Positions 260 to 58,926 of a stretch of 64,000 nt of DNA are shown here, piece by piece (the first letter of the stretch is position 1; every line of letters begins with the position of its first letter). A program made the position numbers and the translations under genes. Origin of the DNA: Candidatus Babeliales bacterium (lineage in GTDB: Bacteria; Babelota; Babeliae; Babelales; Vermiphilaceae); assembly GCA_963743635.1 (NCBI GenBank), contig CAVUQO010000003.1, positions 1 through 64,000 on the forward strand, given 5' to 3'. The notes below the pieces were generated by a model that did no database searches, was not told where the DNA came from, and worked only from the letters and a program-made list of their open reading frames with translations.

Positions 260-2162
260 CTATTGCATTGTTTCTCGAATTAACTTTTGAAGTTCTGCTT
301 GATCTTCGCGCCGTAGCTTTTGCCATTGAATCATATTCAAAATATTGTTAATCCAATCCATTTTACTTATCTTCTGCTTTTTATCGCGAGCCCACAGTAA
401 TAGATGTTCAAATAACGCTGTATCAAAATCAGATATTCCTGGTAATGATTTTGGCAAAAGCCCCACTATTTTTGCCGTATCATCTCGAGATCCGGTCACT
501 ACCCTATTGCCATCTGCTGATATCGCTACTGAATTAACCGAATCAGTATGCGCAAACGTATACTGCTCAATCCATGCACTGCCATTCCATGCTACTATCT
601 TTGCCGAACCATCTTTAGATCCTGTCACCACCCTATTGCCATCTGCGGATATCGCTACTGATGCAACCGAATTATTATGCGCAATATTATATTGCTCAAC
701 CCATGCATTGCCATTCCATGCAACTATCTTTGCCGTTCTATCTAAAGATCCTGTCACCACCCTATTGCCATCTGCTGATATCGCTACTGAATCAACTATC
801 ATAGTATGCCGAATCGTATACTGCTCAATCCATGCATTGCCATTCCATGCAACTATCTTCGCCGTATAATCCCAAGATCCCGTCACCACTCTCGTACCAT
901 CTGCTGATATCGCTACTGAACTAACCGTATGATTATACGGAATCATATACTGCTCAATCCATGCATTGCCATTCCACGCAACTATCTTTGCCGTCATATC
1001 AATAGATCCCGTCACCACCCTATTGGCATCTGCTGCTATCGCTACTGATAAAACCCTCCCCTCATTATGACGAATCGTATATTGCTCAACCCACGCAGCC
1101 CCATTCCATGCAACTATCTTTGCTGTATCATCTTCAGATCCCGTCACTACCTTATTGCCATCTGCTGATATCGCTACTGACCTAACCATCCCACGATGCG
1201 CAATATTATATTGCTCAAGCCATGCATTGCCATTCCACGCAACTATCTTTGCCGTGTCATCCCAAGATCCCGTCACCACCGTATTGCCATCTGCTGATAT
1301 CGCTACTGAATCAACTATCATAGTATGCGAATAGTATACTGCTCAAGCCATGCATTGCCATTCCATACATTATCTTTGCCGTTTTATCAACAGATCCCGT
1401 CACTACCCTATTGCCATCTGCTGATATCGCTACTGACAAAACTATATCATCATGCTCAATCGTATACTGCTCAAGCCATATTCCTGATCTTGGCATATTT
1501 TCCGCAATCTGCTTTTTCAAATGAGGGAACAAATTAGTTATCAATGCCACATATTCCTGATCGCCTTGACTTAACAGTCTCATTGATTCATCTGACATGA
1601 TCATATCTGCTATCTGATGCGCATAGAGCTCTAGCAATGATGCTTGCTGTAAAAAATCGGCGGCTTGTAATTGCGCTATTAATACCTCTAATGCATCTCT
1701 ATCAAACGCAACTGCCGGCATAGTTTGCATTATTCTTCTTACTGCCTGTTGCTCCGTCTCATTTAGTTGCTGCTGAGCGCGCACTTGCTCCACCCAACCC
1801 AGGTCGTTCAGCAGCTCTTGAAAAAGGTCACTGCTTATTTCAGGTAAATTTACCGCCCTTTGTTGCTGTTCTCTAAACTCCGAACTCAGCATTGCATTAA
1901 AATAATCAAATAAACGCGCTTGATTGATAGGCACATCCAATACTTTGTCATAACTCAATATCACCCTAATCATTCCTACTGGAATATCTTCCTCGTGTGC
2001 ACCTTGAAGTCGCTGCCTCTTGGTGGACTGTGCACCGCCTATATTCTTGGACATCTCTCCAGCATCACGTTTTTTGCCAGACTCTTGCTCCATTGCCCCC
2101 ATGCGCCATGCAACGATTCCAATCGCCAATACCGCAACTGCTATGATTTTATTTCTCTCCAT
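260..2162 (-). CDS. Secreted BTB/Skp1-like + 8x WD40 repeat protein (split by apparent frameshifts near 1328 and 1370)
   Basis: ORFs 1311..2162 and 260..1321 join into one paralog of the next three genes. BTB-like LFDYFNAMLSSEFREQQQRAVNLPEISSDLFQELL. Two single-base losses relative to the repeat consensus. Confidence 0.85.
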
Positions 2163-2315
2163 TTTTTCCCCCTTTTAAGATCTGATGTGAATACCTATCT
2201 CACATCTTGCATCACTTATTCTTGCAGAATTGCCCATGCAAAAACAATGAAATAATGATACGGCCCCGGGGAAGTTTATCTCTCTCCCGAGGCCGTTATC
2301 ATTTTATTCTGACTA
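2163..2315. repeat. WD40-array intergenic unit copy
   Basis: Homologous to 107-259; hairpin 2261-2295. Confidence 0.85.
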
Positions 2316-4145
2316 CTACTGCCGCACTGCACGCTGCATTGTTTCTCGAATCATTTTCTGCAATTCTTTTTTCGCAATAGACTCCACATCTCGCCATTGG
2401 ATACTTCGCAGTATATCTCCTGCCCAACCTGCTTTAGATATTTTCTGCCCACTTCTTTTTGCCCACATCAATAGATGTTCAAATAAACAGGCATCAAAAT
2501 CAGATATCCCCGGCAATGATTTTGGCAAAAGTCCCACTATCTTCGCCCTATTATCCCAAGATCCCATCACCACTTTATTGCCATCTGCTGATATCGCTAC
2601 TGATAAAACCCAATCAGTATGCGCAAACGTATACTGCTCAATCCATGCACTGCCATTCCATGCTACTATCTTTGCCGAACCATCTTTAGATCCTGTCACC
2701 ACCCTATTGCCATCTGCTGATATCGCTACTGATGCAACCGAATTATTATGCGCAATATTATATTGCTCAACCCATGCATTGCCATTCCATGCAATTATCT
2801 TTGCCGTATTATCCCAAGATCCCGTCACTACCCTATTGCCATCTGCTGATATCGCTACTGATAAAACCCTCTCAGTATGCGGAATCGTATACTGCTCAAT
2901 CCATGCATTGCCATTCCATGCAAATATCTTTGCCGTATTATCCAAAGATCCCGTCACTACCCTATTACCATCTGCTGATATCGCTACTGATTTAACCGAC
3001 TCAGCACCATGCCGAATCGTATACTGCTCAACCCATGCAGCGCCATTCCATACAACTATCTTTGCCGTTTTATCAACAGATCCCGTCACTACCCTATTGC
3101 CATCTGCTGATATCGCTACTGATAAAACCGCTTTATTATGCGCAATCGTATACTGATCAACCCATGCGTTACCGTTCCATGCAACTATTTTTGCCATATT
3201 ATCATAAGATCCCATCACCACCCTATTGCCATCTGCTGATATCGCTACTGATAAAACCTCCCTATTATGCCGAATCGTATGCTGCTCAATCCATGCATTG
3301 CCATCCCATGCAACTATTTTTGCCGTACCATCCTCAGATCCGGTCACTACCGTATTGCCATCTGCGGATATCGCTACTGACGCAACCCAATTAGTATGCG
3401 CAATCGTATGCTGCTCAATCCATGCATTGCCATTCCATGCAATTATCTTTGCCGTATTATCTAAAGATCCCGTCACCACTTTATTGCCATCTGCCGATAT
3501 CGCTACTGATAAAACCTCCCTATTATGCCGAATCGTATACTGCTCAAGCCATATTCCTGCTCTTGGCATATTTTCCGCAATATGCTCTTTCAGATGAGGA
3601 AACAAATTAGTTATCAATGCGACATATTCCTGATCGCCTTGACTTAGCAGTTCCATCGATGCACGTGATATGATCATATCTGCTATCTGATGCGCATAGA
3701 GCTCTAGCAATGTCATCTGCCCTAAATAAACTGCCCCCTCAAATGCCTTTACTAGCTGCGATAACATCTGTCGATTAAAATCAACCCGAGGCATAGCGCT
3801 TACTATTCTTCTTGCTGCTTCCTGCTCACTCTCATTTTCATGCATTTGGCGCCGCACATCTTCCACCCATGGTAAATCCGCAATCAGATGCTGCAAGATT
3901 TCTTGCGTAACATTAGTTAAGGGAACCCCATTCCTAAACCCTTCCGGATCTTCAACGCTCTCAATCAGATCATTAAGTGTCCCAAAAAGCCTTGCCTGAT
4001 CGTAAGGTAGAGTAGTAACTCCATTGTCATCTTTTGTGATCAATTTGAGCACCTGCGCTTGCCCGCCCTGCTCCATCGCGCCCATGCGCCATGCAATAAT
4101 GCCAATCGCCAATACTGCAACTGCTATGATTTTATTTCTCTCCAT
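2316..4145 (-). CDS. Secreted Skp1/BTB-like + 8x WD40 repeat protein
   Basis: Signal peptide; Skp1-like LKLITKDD...LFGTLNDLIE...VPLTNVTQEILQHLI; eight 43-44 aa repeats H..V.SVAISADGN.VVTGS.D.TAKI.AW. Confidence 0.9.
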   Translation of the reverse strand: MERNKIIAVAVLAIGIIAWRMGAMEQGGQAQVLKLITKDDNGVTTLPYDQARLFGTLNDLIESVEDPEGFRNGVPLTNVTQEILQHLIADLPWVEDVRRQMHENESEQEAARRIVSAMPRVDFNRQMLSQLVKAFEGAVYLGQMTLLELYAHQIADMIISRASMELLSQGDQEYVALITNLFPHLKEHIAENMPRAGIWLEQYTIRHNREVLSVAISADGNKVVTGSLDNTAKIIAWNGNAWIEQHTIAHTNWVASVAISADGNTVVTGSEDGTAKIVAWDGNAWIEQHTIRHNREVLSVAISADGNRVVMGSYDNMAKIVAWNGNAWVDQYTIAHNKAVLSVAISADGNRVVTGSVDKTAKIVVWNGAAWVEQYTIRHGAESVKSVAISADGNRVVTGSLDNTAKIFAWNGNAWIEQYTIPHTERVLSVAISADGNRVVTGSWDNTAKIIAWNGNAWVEQYNIAHNNSVASVAISADGNRVVTGSKDGSAKIVAWNGSAWIEQYTFAHTDWVLSVAISADGNKVVMGSWDNRAKIVGLLPKSLPGISDFDACLFEHLLMWAKRSGQKISKAGWAGDILRSIQWRDVESIAKKELQKMIRETMQRAVRQ

Positions 4146-4297
4146 TTTTCCCCCTTTTAAAAACTGATATGAATCCCTATCTCACATCTTGCATGATCTA
4201 TTGTGGCAAAATTGATGATCTAAAAACAATGAAATAATGATACGGCCCCGGGGAAGTTTATCTCTCTCCCAAGGCCGTTATCATTTTATTCTGACTA
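4146..4297. repeat. WD40-array intergenic unit copy
   Basis: Homologous to 107-259 and 2163-2315. Confidence 0.85.
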
Positions 4298-6157
4298 CTA
4301 CTGCCGCACTGCACGCTGCATTGTTTCTCGAATCATTTTCTGCAATTCTTTTTTCGCAATAGACTCCACATCTCGCCATTGGATACTTCGCAGTATATCT
4401 CCTGCCCAGCCGGATTTAGATATTTTCTGCCCACTTCTTTTCGCCCACATCAATAGATGCTCAAATAAACAGGCATCAAAATCAGATATCCCTGGTAATG
4501 ATGTTGGGAGGCATCCAACTATCTTTGCCGTACGATCTTCAGATCCCGTCACCACCTTATTGCCATCTGCTGATATCGCTACTGACCAAACCCAATGATT
4601 ATGACGAATCGTATACTGCTCAACCCATGCGTTGCTATTCCACGCAACTATCTTTGCCGTATTATCCCAAGATCCCGTCACTACCCTATTGCCATCTGCT
4701 GATATCGCTACTGATTCAATCTCAGCACCATGCCGAATCGTATACTGCTCAAGCCATGCATTGCCATTCCATGCAACTATCTTTACCGTACCATCCTGAG
4801 ATCCCGTCACTACCCTATTGCCATCTGCTGATATCGCTACTGATACAACCCAATTATTATGACGAATCGCATACTGCTCAATCCATGCATTGCCATCCCA
4901 TGCAACTATCTTTGCCGTATTATCTAAAGATCCCGTCACCACCTTATTGCCATCTGCTGATATCGCTACTGATACAACCCCAGCAGTATGCGGAATCGTA
5001 TACTGCTCAATCCATGCATTGCCATTCCACACAACTATCTTTGCCGTACCATCCAAAGATCCCGTCACCACCCTATTGCCATCTGCTGATATCGCTACTG
5101 ATCTAACCTCCCTATTATGCCCAATCGTATGCTGCTCAATCCATGCATTGCCATCCCATGCAAATATCTTTGCCGTTCTATCTAAAGATCCCGTCACCAC
5201 CTTATTGCCATCTGCTGATATCGCTACTGAACTAACCCACTCAGTATGCCGAATCGTATACTGCTCAATCCATGCATTGCCATCCCATGCAACTATCTTT
5301 GCCGTTCTATCTAAAGATCCCGTCACCACCTTATTGCCATCTGCTGATATTGCTACTGAGTTAACCGGGCTATTATGCGCAATCACATGCTGCTCAATCC
5401 ATGCATTGCCATCCCATACCACTATCTTTGCCGTATGATCTAAAGATCCGGTCACCACCTTATTGCCACCTGCTGACAGCGCTACTGATTTAACTATCCC
5501 ATTATGCCGAATCGTATACTGCTCAAGCCATATTGCTGGTATGCTTTTCACAATATGCAACGCCAGTTCAAAAGGCAACTCATTCACTAAGGCAGCGACG
5601 CCGCGACCGTATTTCTTATCGACTTGACTCAACAAGCTCATTGATGCATCGGACATGATCATGCCTACTATCTGATGTGTATACAGTTCTATTAATGCCT
5701 TTTGTTGTAAAAAATCTGCTGCCTTTAATTTAACCGCCAATGCGCTTAATCTATCTCGATTGAATGCTACCGCCGGCATGGTTTTCGCCATTCTTTTTGC
5801 CGCTTGCTCTTCAGTCTCATTTTGCTGCCTATTAATCCGCACCTGCTGCGCCCACGGCAATTCCGCTAATAATGTTTTGAAGATACCCATTGAAATAGTA
5901 TTACTGAGCGGCAATCTATTTGCTTCAGCTGGATTCATCGCCTGCATATAACCACGCATATCGCTAAACATTTCAAAAAGCCGCAGCAGATCCCATGGAA
6001 CGTCAACGCTTTCCTCATTACCAGTGCTATTGATTTGATAAACCGTTATCATTTCTTGACCAGCCTGCGCTTGCCCGCCCTGCTCCATCGCCCCCACACG
6101 CCATGCAATAATGCCAATCGCCAGCACGGCAACTGCTATAATTTTATTTCTTTCCAC
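4298..6157 (-). CDS. Secreted Skp1/BTB-like + 8x WD40 repeat protein
   Basis: GTG start; same architecture; LKAADFLQQKALIELYTHQIV resembles the Skp1/BTB C-terminal helices. Confidence 0.9.
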   Translation of the reverse strand: MERNKIIAVAVLAIGIIAWRVGAMEQGGQAQAGQEMITVYQINSTGNEESVDVPWDLLRLFEMFSDMRGYMQAMNPAEANRLPLSNTISMGIFKTLLAELPWAQQVRINRQQNETEEQAAKRMAKTMPAVAFNRDRLSALAVKLKAADFLQQKALIELYTHQIVGMIMSDASMSLLSQVDKKYGRGVAALVNELPFELALHIVKSIPAIWLEQYTIRHNGIVKSVALSAGGNKVVTGSLDHTAKIVVWDGNAWIEQHVIAHNSPVNSVAISADGNKVVTGSLDRTAKIVAWDGNAWIEQYTIRHTEWVSSVAISADGNKVVTGSLDRTAKIFAWDGNAWIEQHTIGHNREVRSVAISADGNRVVTGSLDGTAKIVVWNGNAWIEQYTIPHTAGVVSVAISADGNKVVTGSLDNTAKIVAWDGNAWIEQYAIRHNNWVVSVAISADGNRVVTGSQDGTVKIVAWNGNAWLEQYTIRHGAEIESVAISADGNRVVTGSWDNTAKIVAWNSNAWVEQYTIRHNHWVWSVAISADGNKVVTGSEDRTAKIVGCLPTSLPGISDFDACLFEHLLMWAKRSGQKISKSGWAGDILRSIQWRDVESIAKKELQKMIRETMQRAVRQ

Positions 6158-6313
6158 TTTTCCCCCTTTTAAAAACTGATATGAATCCCTATCTCATACC
6201 TTACATGATCTATTGTGGCAAAATTGATGATCTAAAAACAATGAAATAATGATACGGCCCCGGGGAAGTTTATCTCTCTCCCGAGGCCGTTATCATTTTA
6301 TTCTAATATTATG
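6158..6313. repeat. WD40-array intergenic unit copy
   Basis: Homologous to the other spacers. A partial copy (promoter side only) lies at 8162-8250. Confidence 0.85.
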
Positions 6314-8161
6314 CTACTGCATTGTTTCTCGAATTAATTGTTTCAGCGTTTCTGCAGTATTTGTTTCTGCTTTTTCCCACAAAATATGGTTTCGCATATC
6401 TCCTGCCCATCCTCTATTAGATATTTTCTGCTCACTTCTCTTTGCCCACAGCAATAGATGTTCAAATAAACAGGCATCAAAATCAGATATCCCCGGTAAT
6501 GATTTTGGCAAAAGTCCCACTATTTTTGCCGTATTATCTCGAGATCCCGTCACCACCTTATTGCCATCTGCTGATATCGCTACTGAGTCAACGTAACCAT
6601 TATGCCGAATCGTATGCTGCTCAACCCATGCGTTGCCATCCCACGCAACTATTTTTGCCATATTATCATAAGATCCCGTCACCACTTTATTGCCATCTGC
6701 CGATATCGCTACTGAAAAAATCGAATTATTATGCGCAATCGTATGCTGCTCAATCCATGCATTGCCATCCCATGCAACTATCTTTGCCGTCCTATCCCAC
6801 GATCCCGTCACTACCCTATTGCCATCCGCTGATATTGCTACTGATCTAACCGAACTATTATGCTGAATCGTACGCTGCTCAACCCATGCATTACCATTCC
6901 ATACCACTATCTTTGCCGTATTATCTAAAGATCCCGTCACTACCCTATTGCCATCTGCTGATATCGCTACTGATAAAACCCAATTATTATGACGAATCAT
7001 ATACTGCTCAATCCATGCAGTACCATTCCATGCAACTATCTTTGCCGTATTATCTAAAGATCCCGTCACTATCCTATTGCCATCTGCTGATATCGCTACT
7101 GATCTAACCTCCCTATTATGCTGAATCGCATGCTGCTCAATCCATGCAGTACCATTCCATGCAACTATCCTTGCCGTATTATCCAAAGATCCCGTCACCA
7201 CCTTATTGCCATCTGCTGATATCGCTACTGACCAAACCCAGCCATTATGCGCAATCGGAGGCTGCTCAACCCATGCATTGCCATTCCATACCACTATCTT
7301 TGCCGTATTATCTAAAGATCCCGCCACTACCCTATTGCCATCTGCTGATATCGCTACCGAATTAACCACTTGAGTATGCGGAATCGTATGTTGCTCAACC
7401 CATGCATTGCCATTCCATGCAACTATCTTTGCCGTATTATCTCGAGATCCCGTCACCACCTTATTGCCATCTGCTGATATCGCTACTGAATTAACCCAAT
7501 GATTATGACCAATCGTATACTGCTCAAGCCATATTCCTGCTCTTGGCATACTTTTCAGAATATGCAACGCCAGTTCAGGAGGCAACTCATTCACTAAGGC
7601 AGCGACGTCGTGACCGTATTTCTTATCGACTTGACTCAACAATCTCATTGATGCCTCGGACATGATCATGCCTACTATCTGATGCGTATACAGTTCTATT
7701 AATGCCTGTTGTTGTAAAAAATCTGCTGCCTTTAATTTAACCGCCAATGCGCTTAATCTATCTCGATTGAATGCTACCGCCGGCATGGTTTTCGCTATTC
7801 TTTTTGCCGCTTGCTCTTCAGTCTCATTTTGCTGCTGGTTAATCCGCACCTGCTGCACCCACGGCAAGTCCGCTAATAATGTTTTGAAGATATCCATTGA
7901 AATACCAGCGAGCAGCAATCTATTTGCTTCAGATGGATTCATCGCCTGCACATAACCACGCATATCGCTAAACATTTCAAAAAGCCGCAGCAGATCCCAT
8001 GGAACGTCAACGCTTTCCTCATTACCAGTGCTATTGATTTGATAAACCGTTATCATTTCTTGACCAGCCTGCGCTTGCCCGCCCTGCTGCATCGCCCCCA
8101 TGCGCCATGCAATAATCCCAATCGCCAATGCCGCAACTGCTATAATTTTATTTCTTTCCAC
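6314..8161 (-). CDS. Secreted Skp1/BTB-like + 8x WD40 repeat protein
   Basis: ORF 6314..8191; start placed at GTG 8161 by alignment to the paralogs; 8 WD40 repeats. Confidence 0.9.
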   Translation of the reverse strand: MERNKIIAVAALAIGIIAWRMGAMQQGGQAQAGQEMITVYQINSTGNEESVDVPWDLLRLFEMFSDMRGYVQAMNPSEANRLLLAGISMDIFKTLLADLPWVQQVRINQQQNETEEQAAKRIAKTMPAVAFNRDRLSALAVKLKAADFLQQQALIELYTHQIVGMIMSEASMRLLSQVDKKYGHDVAALVNELPPELALHILKSMPRAGIWLEQYTIGHNHWVNSVAISADGNKVVTGSRDNTAKIVAWNGNAWVEQHTIPHTQVVNSVAISADGNRVVAGSLDNTAKIVVWNGNAWVEQPPIAHNGWVWSVAISADGNKVVTGSLDNTARIVAWNGTAWIEQHAIQHNREVRSVAISADGNRIVTGSLDNTAKIVAWNGTAWIEQYMIRHNNWVLSVAISADGNRVVTGSLDNTAKIVVWNGNAWVEQRTIQHNSSVRSVAISADGNRVVTGSWDRTAKIVAWDGNAWIEQHTIAHNNSIFSVAISADGNKVVTGSYDNMAKIVAWDGNAWVEQHTIRHNGYVDSVAISADGNKVVTGSRDNTAKIVGLLPKSLPGISDFDACLFEHLLLWAKRSEQKISNRGWAGDMRNHILWEKAETNTAETLKQLIRETMQ

Positions 8162-9913: not shown

Positions 9914-11163
9914 TTAGAAATCTACCGCAAGTATAAAGCCGACGGTTGTTGCCTGAATTGAACGTTGACCATTGAACGGCATTTTTCCAAATACAGTCAA
10001 ATATGGCTTACAGCGAACATCTGGTGAAATATGTTCCGCGAAATCGTAATTCAAACTAGCGATGATATTATGCATGGTATAGCTCTGCAACGATTCAGCC
10101 ATATTGGCGACAAGATTCGAATAACAGTTTCCAAAGAGAGATATTTCATCTTCCCCATGTCTTATAAACTGATAGTCAACTTTCAATGAAAGAGCGCGTA
10201 CTATTTTTATAAAATCGATATATAAGTTGAACTGTTGCGTAAGACCCCAGTCAATATGAGCCTCTGCTTTTTGCAAAAATAATAAATCAGTTTGAAAGCG
10301 ATTTGTTTTGATGCGTCGAAGGCGTGTATTATCAAAAAAGTGAGTGAGTTCAATATCAAAGCCTGCGCGTAATGCGTCAACCAACGTGACCCGCAGACCA
10401 CCCGCGAAAATCACACCTACAGAACCATCATTGCCGTATGGAATAGCAAGAATTTTATTTTCATCGCGCTTTAGGCCAGTCGGCAAACTCAGCGCAACCC
10501 GTCCATCAATATCAACATTTTTTAGTAATGGTTTTCCTTGAGGGAATGCTTTCATCCACTCGAGCATCAGTACCAAATCGCCAAGACCTGTGCGATCCCA
10601 TCCCAGAATATCAAGGCCGCAGCCAAGTTCTTTTACATTGCACACAAAATTGTCAGTCAATCGCTCTTTAACGATCAAATCTTGATCAGTGACATCAACC
10701 GTCAAATCACGCCAACAAACATCATGCAGCCCCATTTTATACATGGGTAAGTAAGCGGCCAAAGAAAGGTTGTAGGGGAAATTATAGCGAGCGCTAAAAC
10801 CAAGACCAAAATCATACTCAAACTTGCCTGATGCGCAGAAATGTCCTCGTGTGCCATTATCTAATTCGATCGGTATTCCTATTTTGCCCGCTTCTGAATC
10901 TGGGGAAAAACCAGCAAGCTCGCAATCGCATTTTGTTCAAACGTATAAATTTGAAGTGGATTGCTTGTCACTTTCTCTTCATCAAAAGCTTTAGTGTGAC
11001 CAACTCCTTTTTCAAAATACACACCAATTTGCAATGAATAGGGAATATTTCGGTAAATAGGTCTCCATGGCCAATTATGCGGCTTGATTGCGTTCATGCC
11101 ATAGGCAGATGAAACCGCACTCAACATAAAAAGCACTAATAGCTGACGTGTGTAGTGTATCAT
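9914..11163 (-). CDS. Putative outer-membrane beta-barrel/secreted protein, frameshifted near 10880-10930
   Basis: ORF 10879..11163 (signal peptide) and ORF 9914..10762 are collinear; C-terminus GFILAVDF resembles a beta-signal. Confidence 0.55.
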
Positions 11164-33232: not shown

Positions 33233-33837
33233 TAATCAAGATTCGAAATTAATTGCCATATGTGCGCCCTGCCATCACTAGATGCAGTCACCACTCTATT
33301 ACCATCCGGTGAGAATGATGCTGACGTAACATCTCGATCATCACCCTCCAAGGTATGCAATAATGCCCCACTATTTGCATCCCATATCTTTGCCGTTGCA
33401 TCTTTACATGCAGTCACCACTCTATTACCATCCGATGAGAATGATGCTGAATTAACCACAGTAGTATCCCACAATGTATGTACTAGCTTCCCATTATTTG
33501 CATTCCATATCTTTGCCCTTCCATCACTAGGTGCCGTCACTACTCTATTACCATCCGGCGAGAATGATGCTGACTTAACATTTCCATCATCACCCTCCAA
33601 GCTATGCAATAATCCCCCACTCTTTACATCCCATATTTTTGTCGTTCCATCTTTAGACGCAGTCACTACCCTATTACCATCCGATGAGAATGATACTGAA
33701 TTAATCACATTACTATGCCACAATGTATGCTGATCCTTCCATGCATTCTTTACAACTGGTCGCTGCATCGCCCCCATGCGCCACACAACAATGCCCATCA
33801 CAACTACCACTGCTGCTATAACATTTTTTCTTTCCAT
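33232..33837 (-). CDS. Secreted short WD40 repeat protein (4 repeats)
   Basis: Leader MERKNVIAAVVVVMGIVVWRMGAM similar to the array genes; repeats SASFSPDGNRVVTA.D..AKIWD. Confidence 0.88.
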   Translation of the reverse strand: MERKNVIAAVVVVMGIVVWRMGAMQRPVVKNAWKDQHTLWHSNVINSVSFSSDGNRVVTASKDGTTKIWDVKSGGLLHSLEGDDGNVKSASFSPDGNRVVTAPSDGRAKIWNANNGKLVHTLWDTTVVNSASFSSDGNRVVTACKDATAKIWDANSGALLHTLEGDDRDVTSASFSPDGNRVVTASSDGRAHIWQLISNLD

Positions 33838-35959: not shown

Positions 35960-37156
35960 ATGAAGACCATGCAAAAAATAACCCTTCTGGTGCTCATAAA
36001 CCTGAGCCTCCACAATCAGCCGATATTTGCGATGAACCAGGAAAAGTTACAAGAGCTTAAGCAACAAGAACAAGAAAAGAGAAAAAGGGAAGCAGCAGAG
36101 GCTGCCACAGCCGCTTCTAAGGCTGAGCGAGAAACCGAAGCCTCCAGGCAACAAATTAAAGAAATGGAGCAGCTCCGAGAAAATATTGTCAAAAAAAAAG
36201 AACGTATTGCCAAAATGGAAGAAAAAGAAGCCGAATCTTCTGAATCCGAAGAAGAAGAAGAGAAACCAAGGAAACCGGCAATCCCTAAAGGAAAAGGGAA
36301 AGCCAAACAACCAATAAGAAAAGAAGAAAGTGAATCTGAATCCGAAGAAGAAGAAGAGAAACCAAGGAAACCGGCAACTCCTAAAGTAAAACAAGAAGGA
36401 GAGTCTTCGCGGGCTGGGGAGCTTAGAGGTAGACAACAAGAAATAGCGAGAGAAGTTCTTGAATTAATTACAACAATGCCAGAGTTTTGTGCACAAAAAA
36501 TACATGCTATTAAACAACATGAAAAAGGAAGTCCGGAATACGAAAGATTAGTAGCAAAATACCGACCACAAGAAAAAAAATTGAATGATAAATTAGCACG
36601 CCTACAAGCATCATATACAAAAGAATTAGTCGAAAACTTGCAGGATGATCCTACTGTTCAAAAAATTACCAACATTCTTAAAAAGGGCGTCTTTCTCATA
36701 GATTACGGGAAAGAAGAAGCCGTAAAAAAGATAGAGCCACTGATAGCAAGAGATGAAAAACAGAAACAAATGATCAGAAAGAAAATAGAGCAAGACATAG
36801 TAGCAGCTCAAAAAAATCCAGCACTCAAAGCTGAGGTTAAGAAGAAAAGGGAAATAATTAAAAAGGAAATACCCGGACTTTATATAAATGAAGCAGAAGC
36901 AGATGGGAAGCTACTATGGACCAAAGTAAAGGTGTTAAAAAAACAAGCGAAACTGGCAGAGACAGAGAGAGAGCGGAAAGCCATCGAAGATGAGATTGAC
37001 ATGCTCTATCGAATGTATCCCCATATTATTGTAGCGACTGAATTGATGGAGGAACGCAAGCTAAAGATTTACACAGAAATAGACATCTCCCGTTACGTTG
37101 ATGCAAAAATAGATGAACTTGTAGAAGAGTATAAGAAAAACAAGAAAAATCAGTAA
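35960..37156 (+). CDS. Secreted charged coiled-coil protein
   Basis: Leader MKTMQKITL...NQPIFAM; K/E-rich; internal 52-bp direct repeat (36239-36290, 36335-36386). Confidence 0.85.
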   Translation: MKTMQKITLLVLINLSLHNQPIFAMNQEKLQELKQQEQEKRKREAAEAATAASKAERETEASRQQIKEMEQLRENIVKKKERIAKMEEKEAESSESEEEEEKPRKPAIPKGKGKAKQPIRKEESESESEEEEEKPRKPATPKVKQEGESSRAGELRGRQQEIAREVLELITTMPEFCAQKIHAIKQHEKGSPEYERLVAKYRPQEKKLNDKLARLQASYTKELVENLQDDPTVQKITNILKKGVFLIDYGKEEAVKKIEPLIARDEKQKQMIRKKIEQDIVAAQKNPALKAEVKKKREIIKKEIPGLYINEAEADGKLLWTKVKVLKKQAKLAETERERKAIEDEIDMLYRMYPHIIVATELMEERKLKIYTEIDISRYVDAKIDELVEEYKKNKKNQ

Positions 37157-38857: not shown

Positions 38858-38945
38858 TGCCCAACCGAGGAGCAATTCCCTGGTTGGGCATAATTCTTGC
38901 TTCCTATTTTACGCCTATGTTACGCTCCAGAAAAATCTTATAAAC
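38858..38945 (+). repeat. Hairpin plus promoter unit of cassette-like array
   Basis: TGCCCAACCGAGGAGCAATTCCCTGGTTGGGCA-TAATTC then TTGCTT-18bp-TACGCT with extended -10 TG. Confidence 0.85.
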
Positions 38946-38967
38946 TATATTAATAAAGGATATAGGT

Positions 38968-40539: not shown

Positions 40540-42615
40540 ATGAAGATGATGCAAAAAATAACCCTTATGGCGCTCGTAGCTAGCCTCTACAATCAGCCGA
40601 TTTTTGCGATGAGCGAGGAAGCCTTAGAAGAATGGAAAAAAGCAGCAGGAGAAGCGAAAGCCGCAGCAGCCCAACAATTTCCCATTGCAAGCGCATCATC
40701 ATCGAGTAGTTCAACGAAGGAAAACATTCAACTATTGAGTAAGTTGGGCATTCGAAGGCTCATTATTATTTTTGATCCAGAGAATAATGAATGGTCAATA
40801 CAATGCTCTAATCCGCGAGCACTTCAAGGCACTCTCAAGCAGGCTTTAGTAGAGTGTAGCGCTCCCATAATAACGACTCCCTTCTTATATGAATATGCTA
40901 AAAAATGCGTATTCACTGACTCCACTATTAATCAACAATGGAAAAAATATAGAACTCGAGGCGACGATAAATACCTTGTTGTACTGATTCCAAATAGAGA
41001 GCCCTATAATGTATGGCTCAGCAATATTGATTCCTCGCCAAGGCCTCTAACGGAAAGCGAGCTCATGCTCGGCATAAAAATAAGGCAACTACAAGAGATG
41101 CCTAACAACTTTAATACGTCAGCCGTTAAAATGAACTTAAAAGAAGAACTCCAAAAAATCCTAATAACCTATAATGATTTAAAAAAAGCTGGATTGCCTG
41201 ATGACCATAGTAATATGTGGGACATTTACCTTACGGGGCACGGCAATCTAGAGAGTAAAAACAAAAGGGCTCCTCAGGAAGCCACTATAGCGAGCATTCC
41301 GATACCAAGTTTTAAACAATTTCTTAATTTTTTAAATTATGGCATCAGCACAAGAAGTTTTTATTACGACACATGTTTTGGAGGCGGTACACATTTAAAA
41401 GAGCCGTACCAATATGAAATAGAAAAGGATGCCAAGCATGCAAATGCTCAAGTGGAAAAAGAAGCACGCGACCAAAATCTTAAATTTTTGATAATTTCTG
41501 CAACTACATACGCAAAAACCACACAAGCGGACATCCAAACGGCACCTTCAGGGCAAACCATTGTCGCAACCATTAATTTTAATGCTTATTTCACAACACT
41601 GAATAATTACTTTCAGGACTCTAAGGAACACACCAAGGAAGAATTATCGAAAGCGATTAATTATCTCTCTACATGGGAGAAATCATTTGATCCCGCAAGA
41701 CCGGAATGGCTACAGCTTCCCGCAGTGCGTTTTCCCAATACCGAGAAATTTGTTAATCCTGACATGGATAAAATTTTTCAGTTAACTGATCGCGCCATAG
41801 AACATGCAATACAGCATGGCAAAAAAGAGCTCAAAATTCCCAAAGAAACTAAAATTATCTTACTCCAGTCGCACTATGTTCCGATAAAAATTACCATTGA
41901 AGGAGATAGTATGCCACTGTTACTACCGTCAACAAATACCGTCAATTCTTCATACTTTTTTAAGGAAATTGAGGCGCCAAACGTTTATTTATTTTCAGAA
42001 AATAAGGGCCTTGTGACTTTTTCAAAAATGATTGAAAACATCAAAGAACGATTTTATGAAACGGGTAGAGTAAAAAGGGCACTTAATATACCAGATGCTA
42101 AGGTTGTTTTTTTGGTTGCAACATTAATCTTAAAAAGGAATGATCAATCAAAGTCAACCCTCAAAGACTCATTGGTGAATCTATCAGGGTGGGGATTGCC
42201 TACAATAAAAATAACTACAGATAAAGCTGAAAATTTTGATTTTCGTACATTGCCACAACCCCCAGGGGAATACGATCCTAAATTTTTCCTCGAAGAAAAG
42301 AGTAGCGATGCATCGTTCATTAATTTAATAAATCGGGCAAAAAAAAGAGCCCTCATGGAACAATACTTAACATTCAAAGATAAGCCGGCGCTTCTTGATA
42401 CTTGGAAAAAAATAATTCCCCAAGCAGATCTCCAAACGTTTAATGATTATCAAAAACTGGTAGACAAAGCATTTTCATTCAAGGGTAATCAAGGCGCATT
42501 TGATGAATGGTTAAATGCCATGCCTCGTCCTAGTGGCGGATATACCTATAGTGATGAATATCACTTTATACGTGATTTCTTCAAAGATGACCATCCCGAA
42601 CTTCAAATTCCATAA
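40540..42615 (+). CDS. Secreted protein with putative caspase-like (clan CD) His/Cys dyad
   Basis: Leader shared with 35960 gene; WDIYLTGHG ... FYYDTCFGGG. Confidence 0.6.
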   Translation: MKMMQKITLMALVASLYNQPIFAMSEEALEEWKKAAGEAKAAAAQQFPIASASSSSSSTKENIQLLSKLGIRRLIIIFDPENNEWSIQCSNPRALQGTLKQALVECSAPIITTPFLYEYAKKCVFTDSTINQQWKKYRTRGDDKYLVVLIPNREPYNVWLSNIDSSPRPLTESELMLGIKIRQLQEMPNNFNTSAVKMNLKEELQKILITYNDLKKAGLPDDHSNMWDIYLTGHGNLESKNKRAPQEATIASIPIPSFKQFLNFLNYGISTRSFYYDTCFGGGTHLKEPYQYEIEKDAKHANAQVEKEARDQNLKFLIISATTYAKTTQADIQTAPSGQTIVATINFNAYFTTLNNYFQDSKEHTKEELSKAINYLSTWEKSFDPARPEWLQLPAVRFPNTEKFVNPDMDKIFQLTDRAIEHAIQHGKKELKIPKETKIILLQSHYVPIKITIEGDSMPLLLPSTNTVNSSYFFKEIEAPNVYLFSENKGLVTFSKMIENIKERFYETGRVKRALNIPDAKVVFLVATLILKRNDQSKSTLKDSLVNLSGWGLPTIKITTDKAENFDFRTLPQPPGEYDPKFFLEEKSSDASFINLINRAKKRALMEQYLTFKDKPALLDTWKKIIPQADLQTFNDYQKLVDKAFSFKGNQGAFDEWLNAMPRPSGGYTYSDEYHFIRDFFKDDHPELQIP

Positions 42616-48393: not shown

Positions 48394-49377
48394 ATGGTTA
48401 TGAAAATAATCCGCCATTCTCGAAAAATGTTCGTCTATTCACTTTCTCTTCTATTATCTGCGCAGCAGATTTGCTGCATGCAACCAGAACACCGCCCATT
48501 AAAGGTTGATGCGCGAAATCAAATAGCAATCGCAGATACCATAAAAAGCTTATCTACCACGAATGCCCGCCTCGATAAGATGCAAGTCTTTCTTGGATCT
48601 GTGATCAACAACACTGAGTTACGGAGGGCCGATCTAACAACAGCTGATTTTGAAAATATACCACTTGATGACATAACTATTAACGGTAAAAATCTAGAAC
48701 AAACCCAACAACTAATCATCACGATGCAAAAAGAGGTTGCACGTAATAATGCACGCAGATTTCCATCATGGGCGGCATACACTAATGCGCGCCAAAATGA
48801 AACGCGTTCAAAGACCTTAAGTACTGCCGTTGCAGGCTTTGTACTCAAAAAGATGCGCTTCGAGCCTGATCTGAGTATTATTACCGGCGGCGGACGAAGT
48901 CTCCCTGAAAATCCGCATGATCTTGATGCAGTCGACATCATTAACGCCTTAAGAATAGCGCTGGGGCCCGTCAAGGAGACCGCCATATTTCTTGGTAAAA
49001 CTATAGAAGACTACAAGAAAGAACTTGAAGCACAACATACATTTTTTATAGACACCCCATGTTGCTACACTCCTCTTGGTAGAAGCAGACAAGCTTTAAG
49101 CCATAAAATAGATTTGCGAGCTCTTGCGATTCCGCTTGTTTGTTTTGCTCAAAAACAAGAATTCTTGAAACAAACGAATGAAGCCTATCCACCTTCATAC
49201 CAAAATCCTGGCGCAGGCGTGGGAGCTTCAATCCCCGCACAACCATCGGATCCTAATCAGACACAACAACCTCCTACATATACAGAAAAGCCTTTTCCGG
49301 AAGCGCAATTTGCCAGTCCTTTTGTGGCAGGCAGTGCGAATACAGGCTCAATTAATAATAATGGAAACGGCAAGTAA
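48394..49377 (+). CDS. Secreted hypothetical protein with P/Q-rich tail
   Basis: AAGGAG RBS; leader ending ICC|MQ. Confidence 0.8.
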   Translation: MVMKIIRHSRKMFVYSLSLLLSAQQICCMQPEHRPLKVDARNQIAIADTIKSLSTTNARLDKMQVFLGSVINNTELRRADLTTADFENIPLDDITINGKNLEQTQQLIITMQKEVARNNARRFPSWAAYTNARQNETRSKTLSTAVAGFVLKKMRFEPDLSIITGGGRSLPENPHDLDAVDIINALRIALGPVKETAIFLGKTIEDYKKELEAQHTFFIDTPCCYTPLGRSRQALSHKIDLRALAIPLVCFAQKQEFLKQTNEAYPPSYQNPGAGVGASIPAQPSDPNQTQQPPTYTEKPFPEAQFASPFVAGSANTGSINNNGNGK

Positions 49378-51362: not shown

Positions 51363-51833
51363 ATGAAATTCATTCAATCTCTCATATTTATATCTGCTCT
51401 CATTCTAGTATCAGACACATTCCCCATGGGCTCATCGCGTCCTGAACGCGAACTGCAACGGCGATCAAGTAGGCGGTTCCTTTTTCAATTAAAAAGTCCA
51501 CGCATCGAAACGCCAACGCCGCTGCCATTTAATCAAGAAGACTTTAAAGATCATGAATCTTTTATAAAAACTGCATATACATCACTGCGAGAAGATCCTC
51601 AAGGAATCGTCACTGAGGCAAAAGCAAATCTGCTCCACGATTATCTCATAACAGTCGATCCTACTTCTCAAGCGCTCCTGCAAGATAAGATCAATTATAT
51701 TGAAGAGCGCATATGGAAACAGACCTCCGGTAATCGCTATAAAGAGTACAAAGAAACAAGTAACCTGCATGAGGCAGTATCGGCAATGATACGAAACACC
51801 AAACCTCCATCCCTTACTGCACACTGTAATTAA
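51363..51833 (+). CDS. Secreted hypothetical protein
   Basis: GGAG RBS; leader ending TFP|MG. Confidence 0.75.
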   Translation: MKFIQSLIFISALILVSDTFPMGSSRPERELQRRSSRRFLFQLKSPRIETPTPLPFNQEDFKDHESFIKTAYTSLREDPQGIVTEAKANLLHDYLITVDPTSQALLQDKINYIEERIWKQTSGNRYKEYKETSNLHEAVSAMIRNTKPPSLTAHCN

Positions 51834-51965: not shown

Positions 51966-53429
51966 ATGCAAACAATGAAATCACTTTCACTATTCTTACT
52001 GCTCGCCGCACCACATGCATGCGCAATGAACATGCAAGAGATAATAATCAGCAGCACCATTGATGATGTCAGAAATATTGTACATAAAGAAAAACCGGTT
52101 GAGGAAGCAAGGCTTTTGCTCGAGGTTGCCAGCAGTCACGGGAAAAAACCTCTTTACACGCACACCGCAATTCTAGCAGGCGAAATCAAGGCTTTGGATA
52201 TCTTCCTTAAAGCAGGCGCTCCCAAAGAACAAGATGCAAAAAAAAGAACCCCGCTCCACTGCGCGCTCGATAAAGATAACACTGAGGCAATTACAGTGCT
52301 TTTTCAATATCCAGAGATGCGAGAATACGATCTGACAAGCAAGGTCAAATCAAAAGAAATGCTTCGACACTATTGCCAAGAGGTGGAGAAAGTATCTCCA
52401 CGCGAGCAAAATCCCAGCACCTGGATAGCAATGACCACCGCAATTACGCCTCCATACATTGAAGATAAACACGGAAAGCTGCCCCCTTTCTCGATCCCTT
52501 CGCACATGCGTGAGATAACGCAAGAGTTTATTGATAAGGGTTATGTGTATATACCAATGTTTTCAGAAAAAGATTCCGCAAAATATGACGCACCCTATAT
52601 AAACTCACTCAGAATGCTCCTCGGTGCAAAGGAAGTCTCTTTACCAGAGGATCTACGTCTTAAGGCACAACAATGCGTAATCTCTCATCATATAAGGTTT
52701 GGCACCATATCTGAGCTGGTCTACATAAAACAAGAATTTAACGATCAAGCCAATAATCCTTTGATCTCGCCATTATTAAAACAGATTCAATATAAAATGG
52801 CCGATCATTATGCAGAGCAATATTTAGAGGCAAAATCAAACATGTCAAATACATATTACCGAAGTTGCAAAAACTGCATACTTCTTAGTCTCACCCCCGA
52901 TGTTCAAGAACATTTTAATCAAAACAATCTCCTGACCTGGCATCTTTATAGAAAAGCACTCTTAAATAATGATCGTGATGTAATCAACAAAATCAAACAA
53001 ATTACCTCTATTGCGGATAATCAAACTACGGAATGGAATAACGCATTGGCAATGTGTGGCGAACTAAACGCTGCCCCGCATGTCACGGATGAAATGCGTC
53101 TTTGTGCAGCGAAAATTACTGCTATTGCGGACTTAGACCCTGCTTTTTTCAGACGCTCCATGAATAGAAAAACCGCAAATTTGATTCATGATTTTGGAAT
53201 CCAAGGTGGTTTCGACGATTTAGCATCACGCGTATATGATTACGTTTCAGATGATCGCATTCCATTGCGCCAATGTAATCCATTCTATCAATATCGCAAA
53301 TGCAGAGACCCTCACTTAGCAACTTATATAGCATATCTCGATCAAGATGATGCGCCTGCTGCAAGCGCAAGCACGAATCCTAACACTTCCAACAATGTTA
53401 ACGCGACAGATGAGAAGAAAGATCAATAA
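51966..53429 (+). CDS. Secreted ankyrin-repeat-containing protein
   Basis: Leader ending ACA|MN; KRTPLHCALDKDNTEAITVLF ankyrin motif. Confidence 0.75.
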   Translation: MQTMKSLSLFLLLAAPHACAMNMQEIIISSTIDDVRNIVHKEKPVEEARLLLEVASSHGKKPLYTHTAILAGEIKALDIFLKAGAPKEQDAKKRTPLHCALDKDNTEAITVLFQYPEMREYDLTSKVKSKEMLRHYCQEVEKVSPREQNPSTWIAMTTAITPPYIEDKHGKLPPFSIPSHMREITQEFIDKGYVYIPMFSEKDSAKYDAPYINSLRMLLGAKEVSLPEDLRLKAQQCVISHHIRFGTISELVYIKQEFNDQANNPLISPLLKQIQYKMADHYAEQYLEAKSNMSNTYYRSCKNCILLSLTPDVQEHFNQNNLLTWHLYRKALLNNDRDVINKIKQITSIADNQTTEWNNALAMCGELNAAPHVTDEMRLCAAKITAIADLDPAFFRRSMNRKTANLIHDFGIQGGFDDLASRVYDYVSDDRIPLRQCNPFYQYRKCRDPHLATYIAYLDQDDAPAASASTNPNTSNNVNATDEKKDQ

Positions 53430-53588: not shown

Positions 53589-54794
53589 ATGAAATTGATG
53601 AAATCAGGTCTATTGATAACAAGCATCATACTATGCCAGCATCTTGTTGCGATGCAGCAAGCTTCTATGGAACCAGAAAATTATCCTCACAGAGCGACCG
53701 ATTCATTGGATGTACGCGCACTGAAAGCGTTGCAATCAAAAAAAGAAAAGGATGAACGAAGCATTCTCGCAGCAGCCCTCTTTGGAGAATATACATATTA
53801 TATGGCGGCAAAAAATGTGGCTTACACCCATAAAAATGCACCTCGCTCCAAGGATGCAGCTCGACGCAAAGACCTATATGATAGTTCAGTATCTGCTCAT
53901 GAAAGAAATCTCGAAAAAGACCGAGAAACTATACGTCACATAATTAAGCATAAAAAAATAAAGTTCGAGGGAACTACCCGCGATCTTGAACTCGCATTTT
54001 TCACCTATAACTCACTGTTTCGAGAGCCTTACGAAGATAAGGAGGAACTCTTGAAAGATTTGCAATCCGTCACTCATGACTTCCTTAATAACTCCAATGG
54101 ACCAACCGTTCTGCTTCGTTTAGCGCTCTATCTCCAAGACGAACAAAAGATCGTCAAATGGTGTATTGATCATGGAGCATCTGTTAATGGCATGATGAAA
54201 CCATTACCGGCAGGTATCCTCTCACCTTTCTACCAAAACGCGTATAATGAACGTATCGCTACTCATCCTCTGGAAGTAGTAATTAAGCTGGTCGATGAAA
54301 ATACTGATTACCCACAATCGCCTGTTTTAAAATATGCTGAAGAAATGTTTACTTTACTAAAAAATCGCGGCGCGACTATGAATAGCGCGCAATACGCAGC
54401 TATTTTGCGCGAATCAACGCCTGAAAGTAGACTCGCCGAGGCTTATCTTATTTTAACTCGTGATAAAAATCTAAAACTCGAACCAGAACTTGCCGACCTT
54501 GCATGCAGTGCGGCTAAAAGATGGAGACAAGACTGCTATAACCCAAAACGCACGGCACAAATGAACCAGAATTTATCAAATCATTACCAACAGATGGCCA
54601 ATATAGTTGAAGATATCGCATGGCAATACACGTCAGGCACTTACTATCCACTAAAAAAAGCAATGGCTGCGGTCAATAAATTTTTCCATCGTGAAGAGGC
54701 TCCTCAGGCAGCACCTTCAAATACGCAAAGGATAAATCCAAATCAGCCAATCAAAGGGATGGATAATCGACCTTTAATCGAAAACGAACAGTAA
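53589..54794 (+). CDS. Secreted hypothetical protein with degenerate ankyrin-like motif
   Basis: Start placed at MKLMKSG; leader ending LVA|MQ; IVKWCIDHGASVN. Confidence 0.7.
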   Translation: MKLMKSGLLITSIILCQHLVAMQQASMEPENYPHRATDSLDVRALKALQSKKEKDERSILAAALFGEYTYYMAAKNVAYTHKNAPRSKDAARRKDLYDSSVSAHERNLEKDRETIRHIIKHKKIKFEGTTRDLELAFFTYNSLFREPYEDKEELLKDLQSVTHDFLNNSNGPTVLLRLALYLQDEQKIVKWCIDHGASVNGMMKPLPAGILSPFYQNAYNERIATHPLEVVIKLVDENTDYPQSPVLKYAEEMFTLLKNRGATMNSAQYAAILRESTPESRLAEAYLILTRDKNLKLEPELADLACSAAKRWRQDCYNPKRTAQMNQNLSNHYQQMANIVEDIAWQYTSGTYYPLKKAMAAVNKFFHREEAPQAAPSNTQRINPNQPIKGMDNRPLIENEQ

Positions 54795-55647: not shown

Positions 55648-56028
55648 ATGCTATTCGGTTTTTTACTCACCCTATTTGTCATCAACTGTTTCTTACTAAT
55701 CCTGCTTATTTTGATCCAACAAGGCAAAAGCAGCATGGGCCTTGGCGCTATGGGCGGCGGCACTCAAATGCTTTTCGGGGGATCAGGCGGCCAGGATATT
55801 TTTCAGAAAACAACCTGGATTCTTGGTGCAATTTTCATGTTTGGTTCGTTTGGCCTTGCGCTTCATAAGAATAGCGCCACTTCACGTTACCTTACTCCAA
55901 ACAGTTCCCGTTCTGTAACTCAACAACAAATCCCAATGCCACAAGCAGCACAAACTGCAGCACCAATGGAATACCCAGCACCTGCAGCGCAAGAAGCAGC
56001 TCCTGAAACAACAGAAGAAGCGGCTTAA
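55648..56028 (+). CDS. secG: Preprotein translocase subunit SecG
   Basis: LILIQQGKSSMGLG...FGGSG...KTTWILG; follows tpiA. Confidence 0.9.
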   Translation: MLFGFLLTLFVINCFLLILLILIQQGKSSMGLGAMGGGTQMLFGGSGGQDIFQKTTWILGAIFMFGSFGLALHKNSATSRYLTPNSSRSVTQQQIPMPQAAQTAAPMEYPAPAAQEAAPETTEEAA

Positions 56029-58373: not shown

Positions 58374-58399
58374 TCTTTGCGTGCAATACAGCTTTAATT

Positions 58400-58432
58400 A
58401 AAAGAGGCGCCCTATAACTGGGTGCCTCTTTT
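58400..58432. terminator. Bidirectional intrinsic terminator
   Basis: AAAAGAGGCGCCC-loop-GGGTGCCTCTTTT between convergent genes. Confidence 0.8.
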
Positions 58433-58455
58433 TGTTTTAAATATATGGGCAATAA

Positions 58456-58926
58456 TTATAATTTTGCCTTAGGAAGATCAAGAATGATTAATCCTAAGGT
58501 TACCGGACAACCTTCTTTTTTATCGCCCTTCAATAGCTTCATATCGCTTAGATAGTGCAATTTCATGACGTTTTGCTCATTTACCGGAATTACTTTTTCA
58601 TCTATTTTTAAAGTTTCTGTAAGGCACTGCGTAGAATTATTCTCTCTAAAGAATTGCGCCCTTGATACATAGCCCTCAATAGTTGGATGCTTGTTTTTTA
58701 GTTTAAACAGCGAGAGCGCGACGGTATATTCATACTTGCTTTTTAGATCGCAACTGAACATAGGAAATGTTGTTTTCACTTCTTTGCCATTTGGAGAAAA
58801 TAAAACCACCTTTTTTTCTCCGTCGCCATCTCGCGTTAGCGATATTACGGCAGTGTATTCATCTTTGTTCTCCATTGCAAAGCCAGAAAGAGGTAACAAC
58901 AGCAATGTTGCCAATATACGTTTCAT
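58456..58926 (-). CDS. Secreted hypothetical protein
   Basis: Start placed at MKRILATLLLLPLSGFA|MENK. Confidence 0.7.
   Translation of the reverse strand: MKRILATLLLLPLSGFAMENKDEYTAVISLTRDGDGEKKVVLFSPNGKEVKTTFPMFSCDLKSKYEYTVALSLFKLKNKHPTIEGYVSRAQFFRENNSTQCLTETLKIDEKVIPVNEQNVMKLHYLSDMKLLKGDKKEGCPVTLGLIILDLPKAKL

Follow-up and report, generated by a model that had tools for sequence, protein, structure and literature searches.

A methionine at the predicted signal-peptidase junction marks accessory exported proteins in part of the Dependentiae

Why should one signal peptide after another end directly before a methionine? The question is raised by a stretch of 64 kb (the window) that opens contig C3 of a 1.45-Mb genome (label G000; three contigs, 42% G+C, completeness estimate 85%), in which a preliminary description had listed 13 open reading frames whose hydrophobic leader runs up to a Met. 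Its ATP synthase beta subunit (AtpD) shows 82% identity to that of 'Candidatus Dependentiae bacterium Noda2021', the next matches being far lower, and on this sequence the organism belongs to the phylum Dependentiae (TM6), whose members live as intracellular protist parasites; the relatives returned by a genome search all lay within one order. We hold it to be highly probable that a selected rule at the signal-peptidase junction, which we call the M-rule, marks the accessory exported proteome in part of this phylum, with Met as the first predicted mature residue (+1) and, in most cases, Asp, Glu, Asn or Gln (D/E/N/Q) as the second (+2).

Our own codon-usage caller gave 1467 genes in G000, and signal peptides (SP) were called with a heuristic of our own (not SignalP), which takes account of hydropathy, of charge and of what stands at -1 and -3, ignores +1 and bars Met at -1 and -3 by construction. 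It returned 571 SP-like proteins (39% of the genes called), which agrees with the signal sequences found on ~44% of genes in published Dependentiae genomes, as given in the available sections of PMC6561590; 10 of 186 that were checked were cytoplasmic housekeeping proteins and thus false positives. Met was the commonest +1 residue in this set, standing there in 122 of the 571 proteins (21.4%, against a Met background of 2.24%; binomial p 4e-79), so that the genome-wide enrichment which the preliminary description had proposed as a check is borne out with this heuristic. At the other permitted offsets from -8 to +10 Met made up 1.9-6.3% each, and because the excess sits solely at +1 the Met is bound to the signal-peptide cleavage junction. 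Paralogy is not the explanation: by similarity of the mature parts the 571 proteins fell into 440 families, with Met(+1) in 86 of 394 singletons, and when proteins related in either leader DNA or mature part were merged, 64 of 348 unrelated singletons still had Met(+1) (p 3e-38). Genes with Met(+1) cluster along the contigs, forming 39 adjacent pairs where 25.7 are expected.

Classical Sec signal peptides have an n-h-c build with small residues at -3 and -1, and judged by sequence the Met(+1) leaders are ordinary Sec-type signal peptides with predicted signal-peptidase-I sites. All 122 passed the hydropathy window filter, Lys or Arg lies ahead of the core in 112, A/G/S stands at -1 in 118 and A/V/L/I/S/T at -3 in 118 (both partly forced by the heuristic), and leader length has a median of 21 residues (interquartile range 20-22). 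What departs from the classical pattern is the +1 residue, since 600 kb of E. coli K-12 run through the same pipeline gave Met(+1) in 1 of 75 proteins, that one being a false-positive leader, and Ala in the lead (16/75). Components of the Sec and signal peptidase I route are encoded in G000, with two tandem Peptidase_S26 genes for signal peptidase I (LepB; 332 and 312 aa, C3:523052-525004) and SecG in the window at 55648-56028. The twin-arginine motif RR.[FGAVML][LITMVF] was found in the first 20 residues of 0 of the 122 leaders. Lipoprotein sorting rules also act behind the cleavage site, as in the +2 Asp 'Lol avoidance' and the lipoprotein export signal of Bacteroidetes, and there too the first mature residues decide the final compartment; those rules concern a lipid-modified Cys(+1) and signal peptidase II, whereas the present leaders have Met at +1 by definition and match even a loose lipobox pattern in only 3 of 122. 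Type IV prepilins are cut after Gly, the new N-terminal Phe or Met is N-methylated, a hydrophobic stretch follows the cut and Glu stands at +5. Met can therefore become the new N-terminus there as well; in the M-rule proteins, however, the hydrophobic core precedes the cut, the stretch from +2 to +16 has a mean hydropathy of -1.0 and is thus hydrophilic, and 7 of the 122 have Glu(+5).

What follows the Met is similarly restricted. D/E/N/Q occupies +2 in 91 of the 122 proteins (75%), as against 28% where another residue stands at +1 and 19% behind internal Mets, and in 66 of 85 such proteins of relatives that follow the rule (see below), which upholds the +2 bias noticed in the preliminary description. 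Residues that would permit trimming by methionine aminopeptidase (MetAP), namely G/A/S/T/P/V/C, make up 13 of 122 (11%, versus 32% when +1 is not Met), and L/I/F/Y/W make up 7 of 122 (versus 18%). The substrate class of NatB is Met-Asp/Glu/Asn/Gln, and a retained Met followed by D/E/N/Q matches it at the level of sequence.

Within one GNAT family the Met is also conserved. A profile-free HMMER search with a single secreted GNAT protein (C3:363279) gave 27 representatives that are at most 50% identical, 26 of which were aligned; of these 26, found by homology alone, 25 have Ala(-1) and 24 have Met(+1), and the Met ranks seventh of 193 alignment columns, level with the catalytic GNAT core. Since the linker from the Met to the first strand varies from 1 to ~14 residues, the position of the Met follows the cut site rather than the GNAT fold. 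Judged from this alignment, Met(+1) is under purifying selection in a diverged GNAT family. One representative (P0006, 1/26) is recorded as starting at the junction Met, which most simply suggests truncation by a gene finder. G000 itself has about 20 SP-bearing GNAT genes (22 HMM hits), many with the Met, and eight of them form one tandem array (C3:361500-367300); a word-index homologue search with one GNAT returned only itself. Of 31 Dependentiae genomes searched at E<=1e-15, only G000 yielded the secreted family; the AlphaFold model of a member (pLDDT 94.6) has structural matches to tRNA-acetylating toxins, GCN5 and NATs, all at TM ~0.5. We had considered that the organism might bring its own N-acetyltransferase for the M-rule proteins; with a family confined to G000 among these genomes and a generic GNAT fold, we found no link.

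As regards the kind of protein that carries the Met, Pfam was run on all 186 SP-like proteins of C3:1-464000, the classes being our own grouping of Pfam names, with three paralogues that have MERNK-type leaders classed by homology. Met(+1) was found in 34 of 103 proteins with no Pfam match and in 15 of 33 eukaryote-like or enzyme-type proteins (WD40 3/3, GNAT 5/11, NACHT/AAA 1/1, sulfotransferase 1/1, Sel1 1/4, Ank 0/2), in 0 of 7 lactonase/fn3 propellers, and in 1 of 23 envelope housekeeping proteins (secretin, TolC-like, BamD-like, OmpA, substrate-binding, M48/M16 peptidases, thioredoxins, FKBP, Ig-like and others). The first two classes taken together differ from envelope housekeeping (49/136 versus 1/23; Fisher p 0.0014). 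The effector tag supposed in the preliminary description is thus right in so far as accessory, eukaryote-like and orphan exported proteins are enriched, and goes too far in that many effector-like proteins, such as both with Ank repeats, three of the four with Sel1 repeats and over half of the GNATs, do without the Met. We infer that the carriers are fast-evolving, host-directed proteins.

The rule had been thought to be lineage-wide, and it proved patchy instead. From each of 15 other Dependentiae genomes 40-200 kb were sampled, samples with fewer than 20 SP-like proteins being individually weak. Seven genomes of families f1, f2, f11 and f12 are rule-positive, with Met(+1) in 85 of 350 SP-like proteins: G017 (27/87), G009 (16/66) and G014 (12/80) in f1, G028 (18/59) in f11, G057 (8/32) and G029 (2/11) in f12, and G019 (2/15) in f2. 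Eight genomes of families f3, f4, f5, f6, f7, f10 and f13 are rule-negative, with 3 of 183: G058 (0/49) and G023 (0/15) in f6, G030 (1/43) in f13, G021 (0/13) in f4, G022 (0/20) in f5, G020 (0/9) in f3, G024 (1/17) in f7 and G027 (1/17) in f10. In an AtpD tree rooted with two Firmicutes, a single-gene tree of moderate support, the deepest split (99/94) leaves rule-positive f12 on one side in the company of rule-negative f4 and f7, and on the other side rule-positive f1, f2 and f11 stand alongside rule-negative f5, f6 and f13, f6 being sister to f1 (86/83). With rule-positive families on both sides of that split and rule-negative ones interleaved, the tree suggests that the M-rule is either an old trait lost several times or one that was gained repeatedly.

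Within the window, 11 of the 13 junctions first listed are convincing: in each a positively charged start leads into a hydrophobic core, -1 is Ala or Gly, and an ATG comes next (Table 1). The other two are doubtful: for the gene at 48394 our heuristic favours LSA/QQ, seven residues before ICC/MQP (the slash marks the cut), and for that at 51363 it favours LVS/DT. The positions originally given are gene starts and not Met codons, the Met junction lying 17-28 codons further downstream. In four of the five MERNK-type leaders (2162, 4145, 8161, 33837) an atypical Met stands at -3 (RMGA/M; 6157 has RVGA/M), which is why the heuristic put their sites elsewhere or rejected them. Because the five MERNK leaders belong together and 35960/40540 and 51966/53589 are pairs of paralogues (the leader DNA of 40540 is 81% identical to that of 35960), the window holds only about six independent cases. 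The gene at 8161 has a GTG start with a G-rich ribosome-binding site immediately 5' of it. It had been correctly noted that the FN3/lactonase propellers, the proteins at 9818 and 14031 and the PLC have no junction Met, and the N-terminal sequence of the 29328 protein, described there as PLC, indeed shows none.

Table 1. Signal-peptide parts with a junction Met, and type II secretion genes, in the window (rows with Met(+1) are the convincing cases; a slash marks the predicted cut)
Feature	Position	Strand	Details
SP part, WD40 paralogue, leader MERNKIIAVAVLAIGIVAWRMGA	2094..2162	-	Met(+1) 2091-2093, then EQ; Pfam WD40
SP part, 609-aa WD40 protein	4077..4145	-	Met(+1) 4074-4076, GA/MEQ; Pfam WD40
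SP part, 619-aa WD40 protein, GTG start	6089..6157	-	Met(+1) 6086-6088, GA/MEQ; Pfam WD40
SP part, WD40 paralogue	8093..8161	-	Met(+1) 8090-8092, GA/MQQ
SP part, 94-aa orphan	11098..11163	-	Met(+1) 11095-11097, AYG/MNA; no Pfam match
SP part, 201-aa protein, MERNK-type leader	33769..33837	-	Met(+1) 33766-33768, GA/MQR
SP part, 398-aa orphan	35960..36031	+	Met(+1) 36032-36034, IFA/MNQ; no Pfam match
SP part, 691-aa orphan	40540..40608	+	Met(+1) 40609-40611, IFA/MSE
Doubtful case	48394..48477	+	ICC/MQP, Cys at -1, Met 48478-48480
Doubtful case	51363..51425	+	TFP/MGS, Pro at -1, Met 51426-51428
SP part, 487-aa protein, weak ankyrin match, leader MQTMKSLSLFLLLAAPHACA/MNMQ	51966..52025	+	Met(+1) 52026-52028, ACA/MNM
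SP part, 401-aa orphan	53589..53651	+	Met(+1) 53652-53654, LVA/MQQ
SP part, 156-aa orphan, leader MKRILATLLLLPLSGFA/MENK	58876..58926	-	Met(+1) 58873-58875, GFA/MEN
gspC, type II secretion system component	60780..61661	+	NCBIfam GspC_delta 6e-21, under family cut-off
gspD secretin, runs past window end	62546..64000	+	NCBIfam type_II_gspD 3.4e-63, under family cut-off

Some further features of the window may be recorded here. Two tandem genes for lactonase-type beta-propellers (37328-40416, plus strand) have identical leaders (MNTHQSKGIVLLLLILIGAPMYLHG...) with no Met junction, and over 94 nt the DNA upstream of the propeller gene at 38968 shares 95% identity with that upstream of the Met-class gene at 40540. 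Positions 1-8000 show a strongly negative GC skew (-0.31 to -0.33) across four tandem minus-strand WD40-repeat genes, and the long shadow open reading frames on the plus strand over this array are repeat artefacts. One WD40 gene is apparently split into two overlapping frames (260-1321 and 1311-2162, minus strand), the gene for a YifB-type ATPase (14286-15499, plus strand) covers only profile positions 181-395 of 499, and in UvrC (44361-45674, plus strand) the best-matched stretch spans only profile positions 4-249 of 574; elsewhere in G000 a methionine aminopeptidase gene extends over two frames (C2:376334-376908). These split or truncated genes are either pseudogenes or the result of indel errors in the assembly.

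With respect to export, the type II secretion system (T2SS) is the sole secretion system found in published Dependentiae genomes according to the available part of PMC4378268, and the window contains genes for two of its components (Table 1); ~3 kb beyond the window end, C3:66726-69347 encodes a second secretin (874 aa, Pfam Secretin). Sorting for a second step such as the T2SS had been offered as one possible role of the junction Met. A GspC homologue is, however, present in 31 of 31 Dependentiae genomes searched, rule-negative ones included, so the presence of a T2SS does not discriminate and alone cannot explain the M-rule. LepB is likewise present throughout, in one to two copies among the relatives, and a dedicated second signal peptidase is not required, as rule-positive G017 and G028 have one LepB each. 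A periplasmic methionine aminopeptidase was considered and set aside, the two M24 loci having no leader and the map gene being apparently split over two frames. Three candidates for a bacterial partner were tried, LepB by its copy number, GspC by its presence and the secreted GNAT family by its distribution, and none of them tracks the rule.

Several explanations of the Met compete, and two of them would make it a matter of annotation or of history. The preliminary description had itself raised the possibility that the Met is the true start codon, and one may add that it could be an alternative start, yielding a leaderless cytoplasmic isoform, with the leader untranslated or optional; ATG is by definition a possible start, and the database homologue P0006 begins exactly at the Met, probably through a gene-finder call. 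Yet a Shine-Dalgarno score of at least 4 precedes only 5% of the +1 Met codons, similar to 7% of internal Mets and far from 84% of called starts (a figure that is not independent, start choice itself having used the score), and second codons of non-exported, leaderless genes most often specify K, I, A or S, their share of D/E/N/Q being 21% against 75% after Met(+1). Mismatches between related leaders number 159/142/305 at codon positions 1/2/3, and this concentration at the third position means that the leaders are translated. They have the full n-h-c architecture, the wobble base of the -1 Ala codon is without bias, which places the signal at the protein level and rules out a nucleotide-level motif such as a Kozak-like context, and there is no reason why an alternative start should fall precisely at +1; we regard a start codon as very improbable. 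The Met could also be a historical joint, either the old start of genes that gained a cassette of promoter, 5' untranslated region (5'UTR) and SP, or a functionless part of such a cassette. Leader cassettes do appear, on DNA comparison, to move between genes: 158 gene pairs share promoter-proximal 5'UTR and SP DNA, 110 of them without detectable similarity in the mature parts, and in ungapped comparisons identity collapses directly after the Met, from 98% up to the Met to 27% over the next 90 nt (C2:554693 versus C2:551922) and from 85% to 32% (C3:132966 versus C3:130529). Moreover, the Met is shared in only 2 of 13 distant homologue pairs in the sampled relatives (13 pairs for 122 proteins, hence few and distant). 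A further cassette example is the window gene at 2162 with C2:115078; across the examples 5'UTR and SP DNA are 81-98% identical, followed by 27-32%, the random level. Nevertheless, cassettes cannot explain the whole of the rule, because 64 of 348 proteins with a unique leader and a unique mature part have the Met, because the +2 bias has no counterpart at ordinary second codons, and because a neutral relic would not persist in 24 of 26 GNATs at no more than 50% identity while the linker changes its length; and selection would be needed to put the Met exactly at +1 of an AxA site in over 80 unrelated units. A historical joint seems to us distinctly unlikely.

Two other explanations place the reason inside the bacterial cell. 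The lineage's signal peptidase I may prefer Met plus a polar residue, young genes drifting towards this processing optimum and old ones keeping inherited sites, which would fit the tight coupling of the rule to canonical -3/-1 residues and a narrow SP length, the two tandem LepB genes of G000 and an insertion that splits the Pfam match in some family-f1 LepBs. However, the conserved, abundant envelope proteins have not drifted to Met (1/23), a Met partner was found in 10 of 138 homologue pairs, the single LepB of G017 and G028 is no obstacle to the rule, and we know of no strict D/E/N/Q at +2 as a determinant for signal peptidase I, so we consider this explanation unlikely. The Met-(D/E/N/Q) terminus might otherwise be a sorting tag, read in the periplasm by the T2SS, another outer-membrane step or vesicle loading, that parts cargo from residents. 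A linear motif on a flexible N-terminal linker, strongly conserved, present on 49 of 136 accessory proteins and on 1 of 23 residents, and encoded in a window with gspC and gspD, would suit such a role, the more so as a cell whose sole reported secretion system is a T2SS (PMC4378268, available part) must tell cargo from residents. What speaks against a tag is that GspC also occurs in the rule-negative families, that rule-negative genomes export equally many SP proteins, that none of the three genes tried co-varies with the rule, and that it is not evident why small residues should be depleted at +2 where MetAP is absent. No linear N-terminal T2SS signal is known to us either, and on balance a sorting tag appears to be a somewhat unlikely possibility.

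We tentatively favour a host-side mechanism, the other role suggested in the preliminary description, in which the cleavage site would be written for the N-terminal rules of the host. LepB would cleave the signal peptide and leave a mature Met-(Asp/Glu/Asn/Gln); the cleaved proteins would exit the cell, presumably through the T2SS as the phylum's only reported secretion system; and they would then act in the host cytoplasm, where the N-terminus may decide their fate. There, Met-D/E/N/Q would be left untrimmed by methionine aminopeptidase, would present neither an Arg/N-degron nor a Met-hydrophobic degron, and would fit the substrates of NatB. We lean towards this reason because the +2 spectrum drops MetAP-permissive residues and those of the Met-hydrophobic degron, which are irrelevant in the periplasm, because GNAT, NACHT/AAA and sulfotransferase enzymes, whose cofactors are cytosolic, are among the carriers, and because the conserved bacterial machines, GspC and LepB, do not set rule-positive lineages apart from rule-negative ones; the occurrence of rule-positive families on both sides of the AtpD split likewise fits a determinant outside the conserved bacterial machinery. 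It is possible, if speculative, that effectors copy untrimmed, non-degron, NatB-compatible N-termini in this way and that, together with the mobile promoter-leader cassettes, the site forms a plug-in module that makes captured genes into host-ready effectors.

A number of points weigh against the host-side mechanism. Ala, Ser, Thr, Gly and Val at +1 would also be stabilising in the Arg/N-degron pathway, which means that degron avoidance alone does not require Met. NatB is a co-translational, ribosome-bound enzyme, so acetylation of an imported protein is not expected by default. The preference for D/E/N/Q might just as well reflect recognition by a bacterial receptor. Effector-like proteins of G000 often lack the Met, the few distant homologue pairs rarely share it, and all predicted cleavage sites rest on a crude heuristic of our own. 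Finally, rule-negative Dependentiae do not fall behind in their share of SP-like proteins (in G058 49 of 82 called genes, 0 of them with Met), and they lead a similar intracellular life according to published accounts of the phylum.

Precedents exist for both halves of the argument. For two bacterial toxins whose destination is the host cytosol, potency depends on the N-terminal residue (available parts of PMC2518864 and PMC3755998); the likeness is that a bacterially set N-terminus matters in the eukaryotic cytosol, to which is added here that the +2 set is the NatB set, and the difference is that those are single proteins studied by mutation, whereas the M-rule is proteome-wide and known from sequence alone. 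The closest parallel at the cleavage site is the Q-rule of Bacteroidetes, in which the Gln(+1) of signal peptidase I substrates is cyclised to pyroglutamate by glutaminyl cyclase (PMC5837995, PMC10653852, in the portions available). Both are lineage-specific preferences for a single +1 residue at Sec/signal peptidase I sites in many unrelated exported proteins. G000 does not follow the Q-rule, Gln(+1) being found in 21 of 571 proteins (3.7%), and unlike it the M-rule concerns Met, accounts for roughly one fifth to one third of SP proteins and not most of them, lies on accessory proteins and avoids the housekeeping envelope, has a strict +2 partner in D/E/N/Q and is patchy in its phylum; and whereas the Q-rule has its glutaminyl cyclase, no partner of the M-rule was found among the three candidates tried. 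The words 'methionine', 'TM6' and 'Dependentiae' are absent from the available text of the Q-rule paper (PMC5837995), the M-rule is not mentioned in the accessible parts of PMC6561590, PMC4378268, PMC11495043 and PMC5837995, and we found it undescribed in the openly accessible literature that was searched on Dependentiae/TM6 secretion, effectors and signal peptides and on the Q-rule. Beyond the earlier description, the present analysis shows that the rule is patchy among families and does not follow the presence of a T2SS or the number of LepB copies, and it contributes the breakdown by protein class, the test of conservation and the leader mosaics.

With the M-rule, Sec substrates would have a second lineage-specific +1 rule besides the Q-rule, and the first to mark a sub-proteome and not all substrates. 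It would offer a cheap sequence handle for candidate host-directed proteins in the Dependentiae, where most exported proteins have no recognisable domain. It also carries a warning for annotation, in that the signal peptide is lost from the gene model when a gene finder places the start at the internal ATG, where 1 of the 26 database homologues begins, and such miscalled starts may add to low counts of predicted secretomes in genomes of this kind. If the host-side mechanism is true, the M-rule would either be old and have been lost repeatedly or have arisen several times, perhaps in step with the host or the intracellular niche. The rule makes it testable how a cell with a T2SS only parts its effectors from periplasmic residents, or how those effectors survive the N-terminal quality control of the host.

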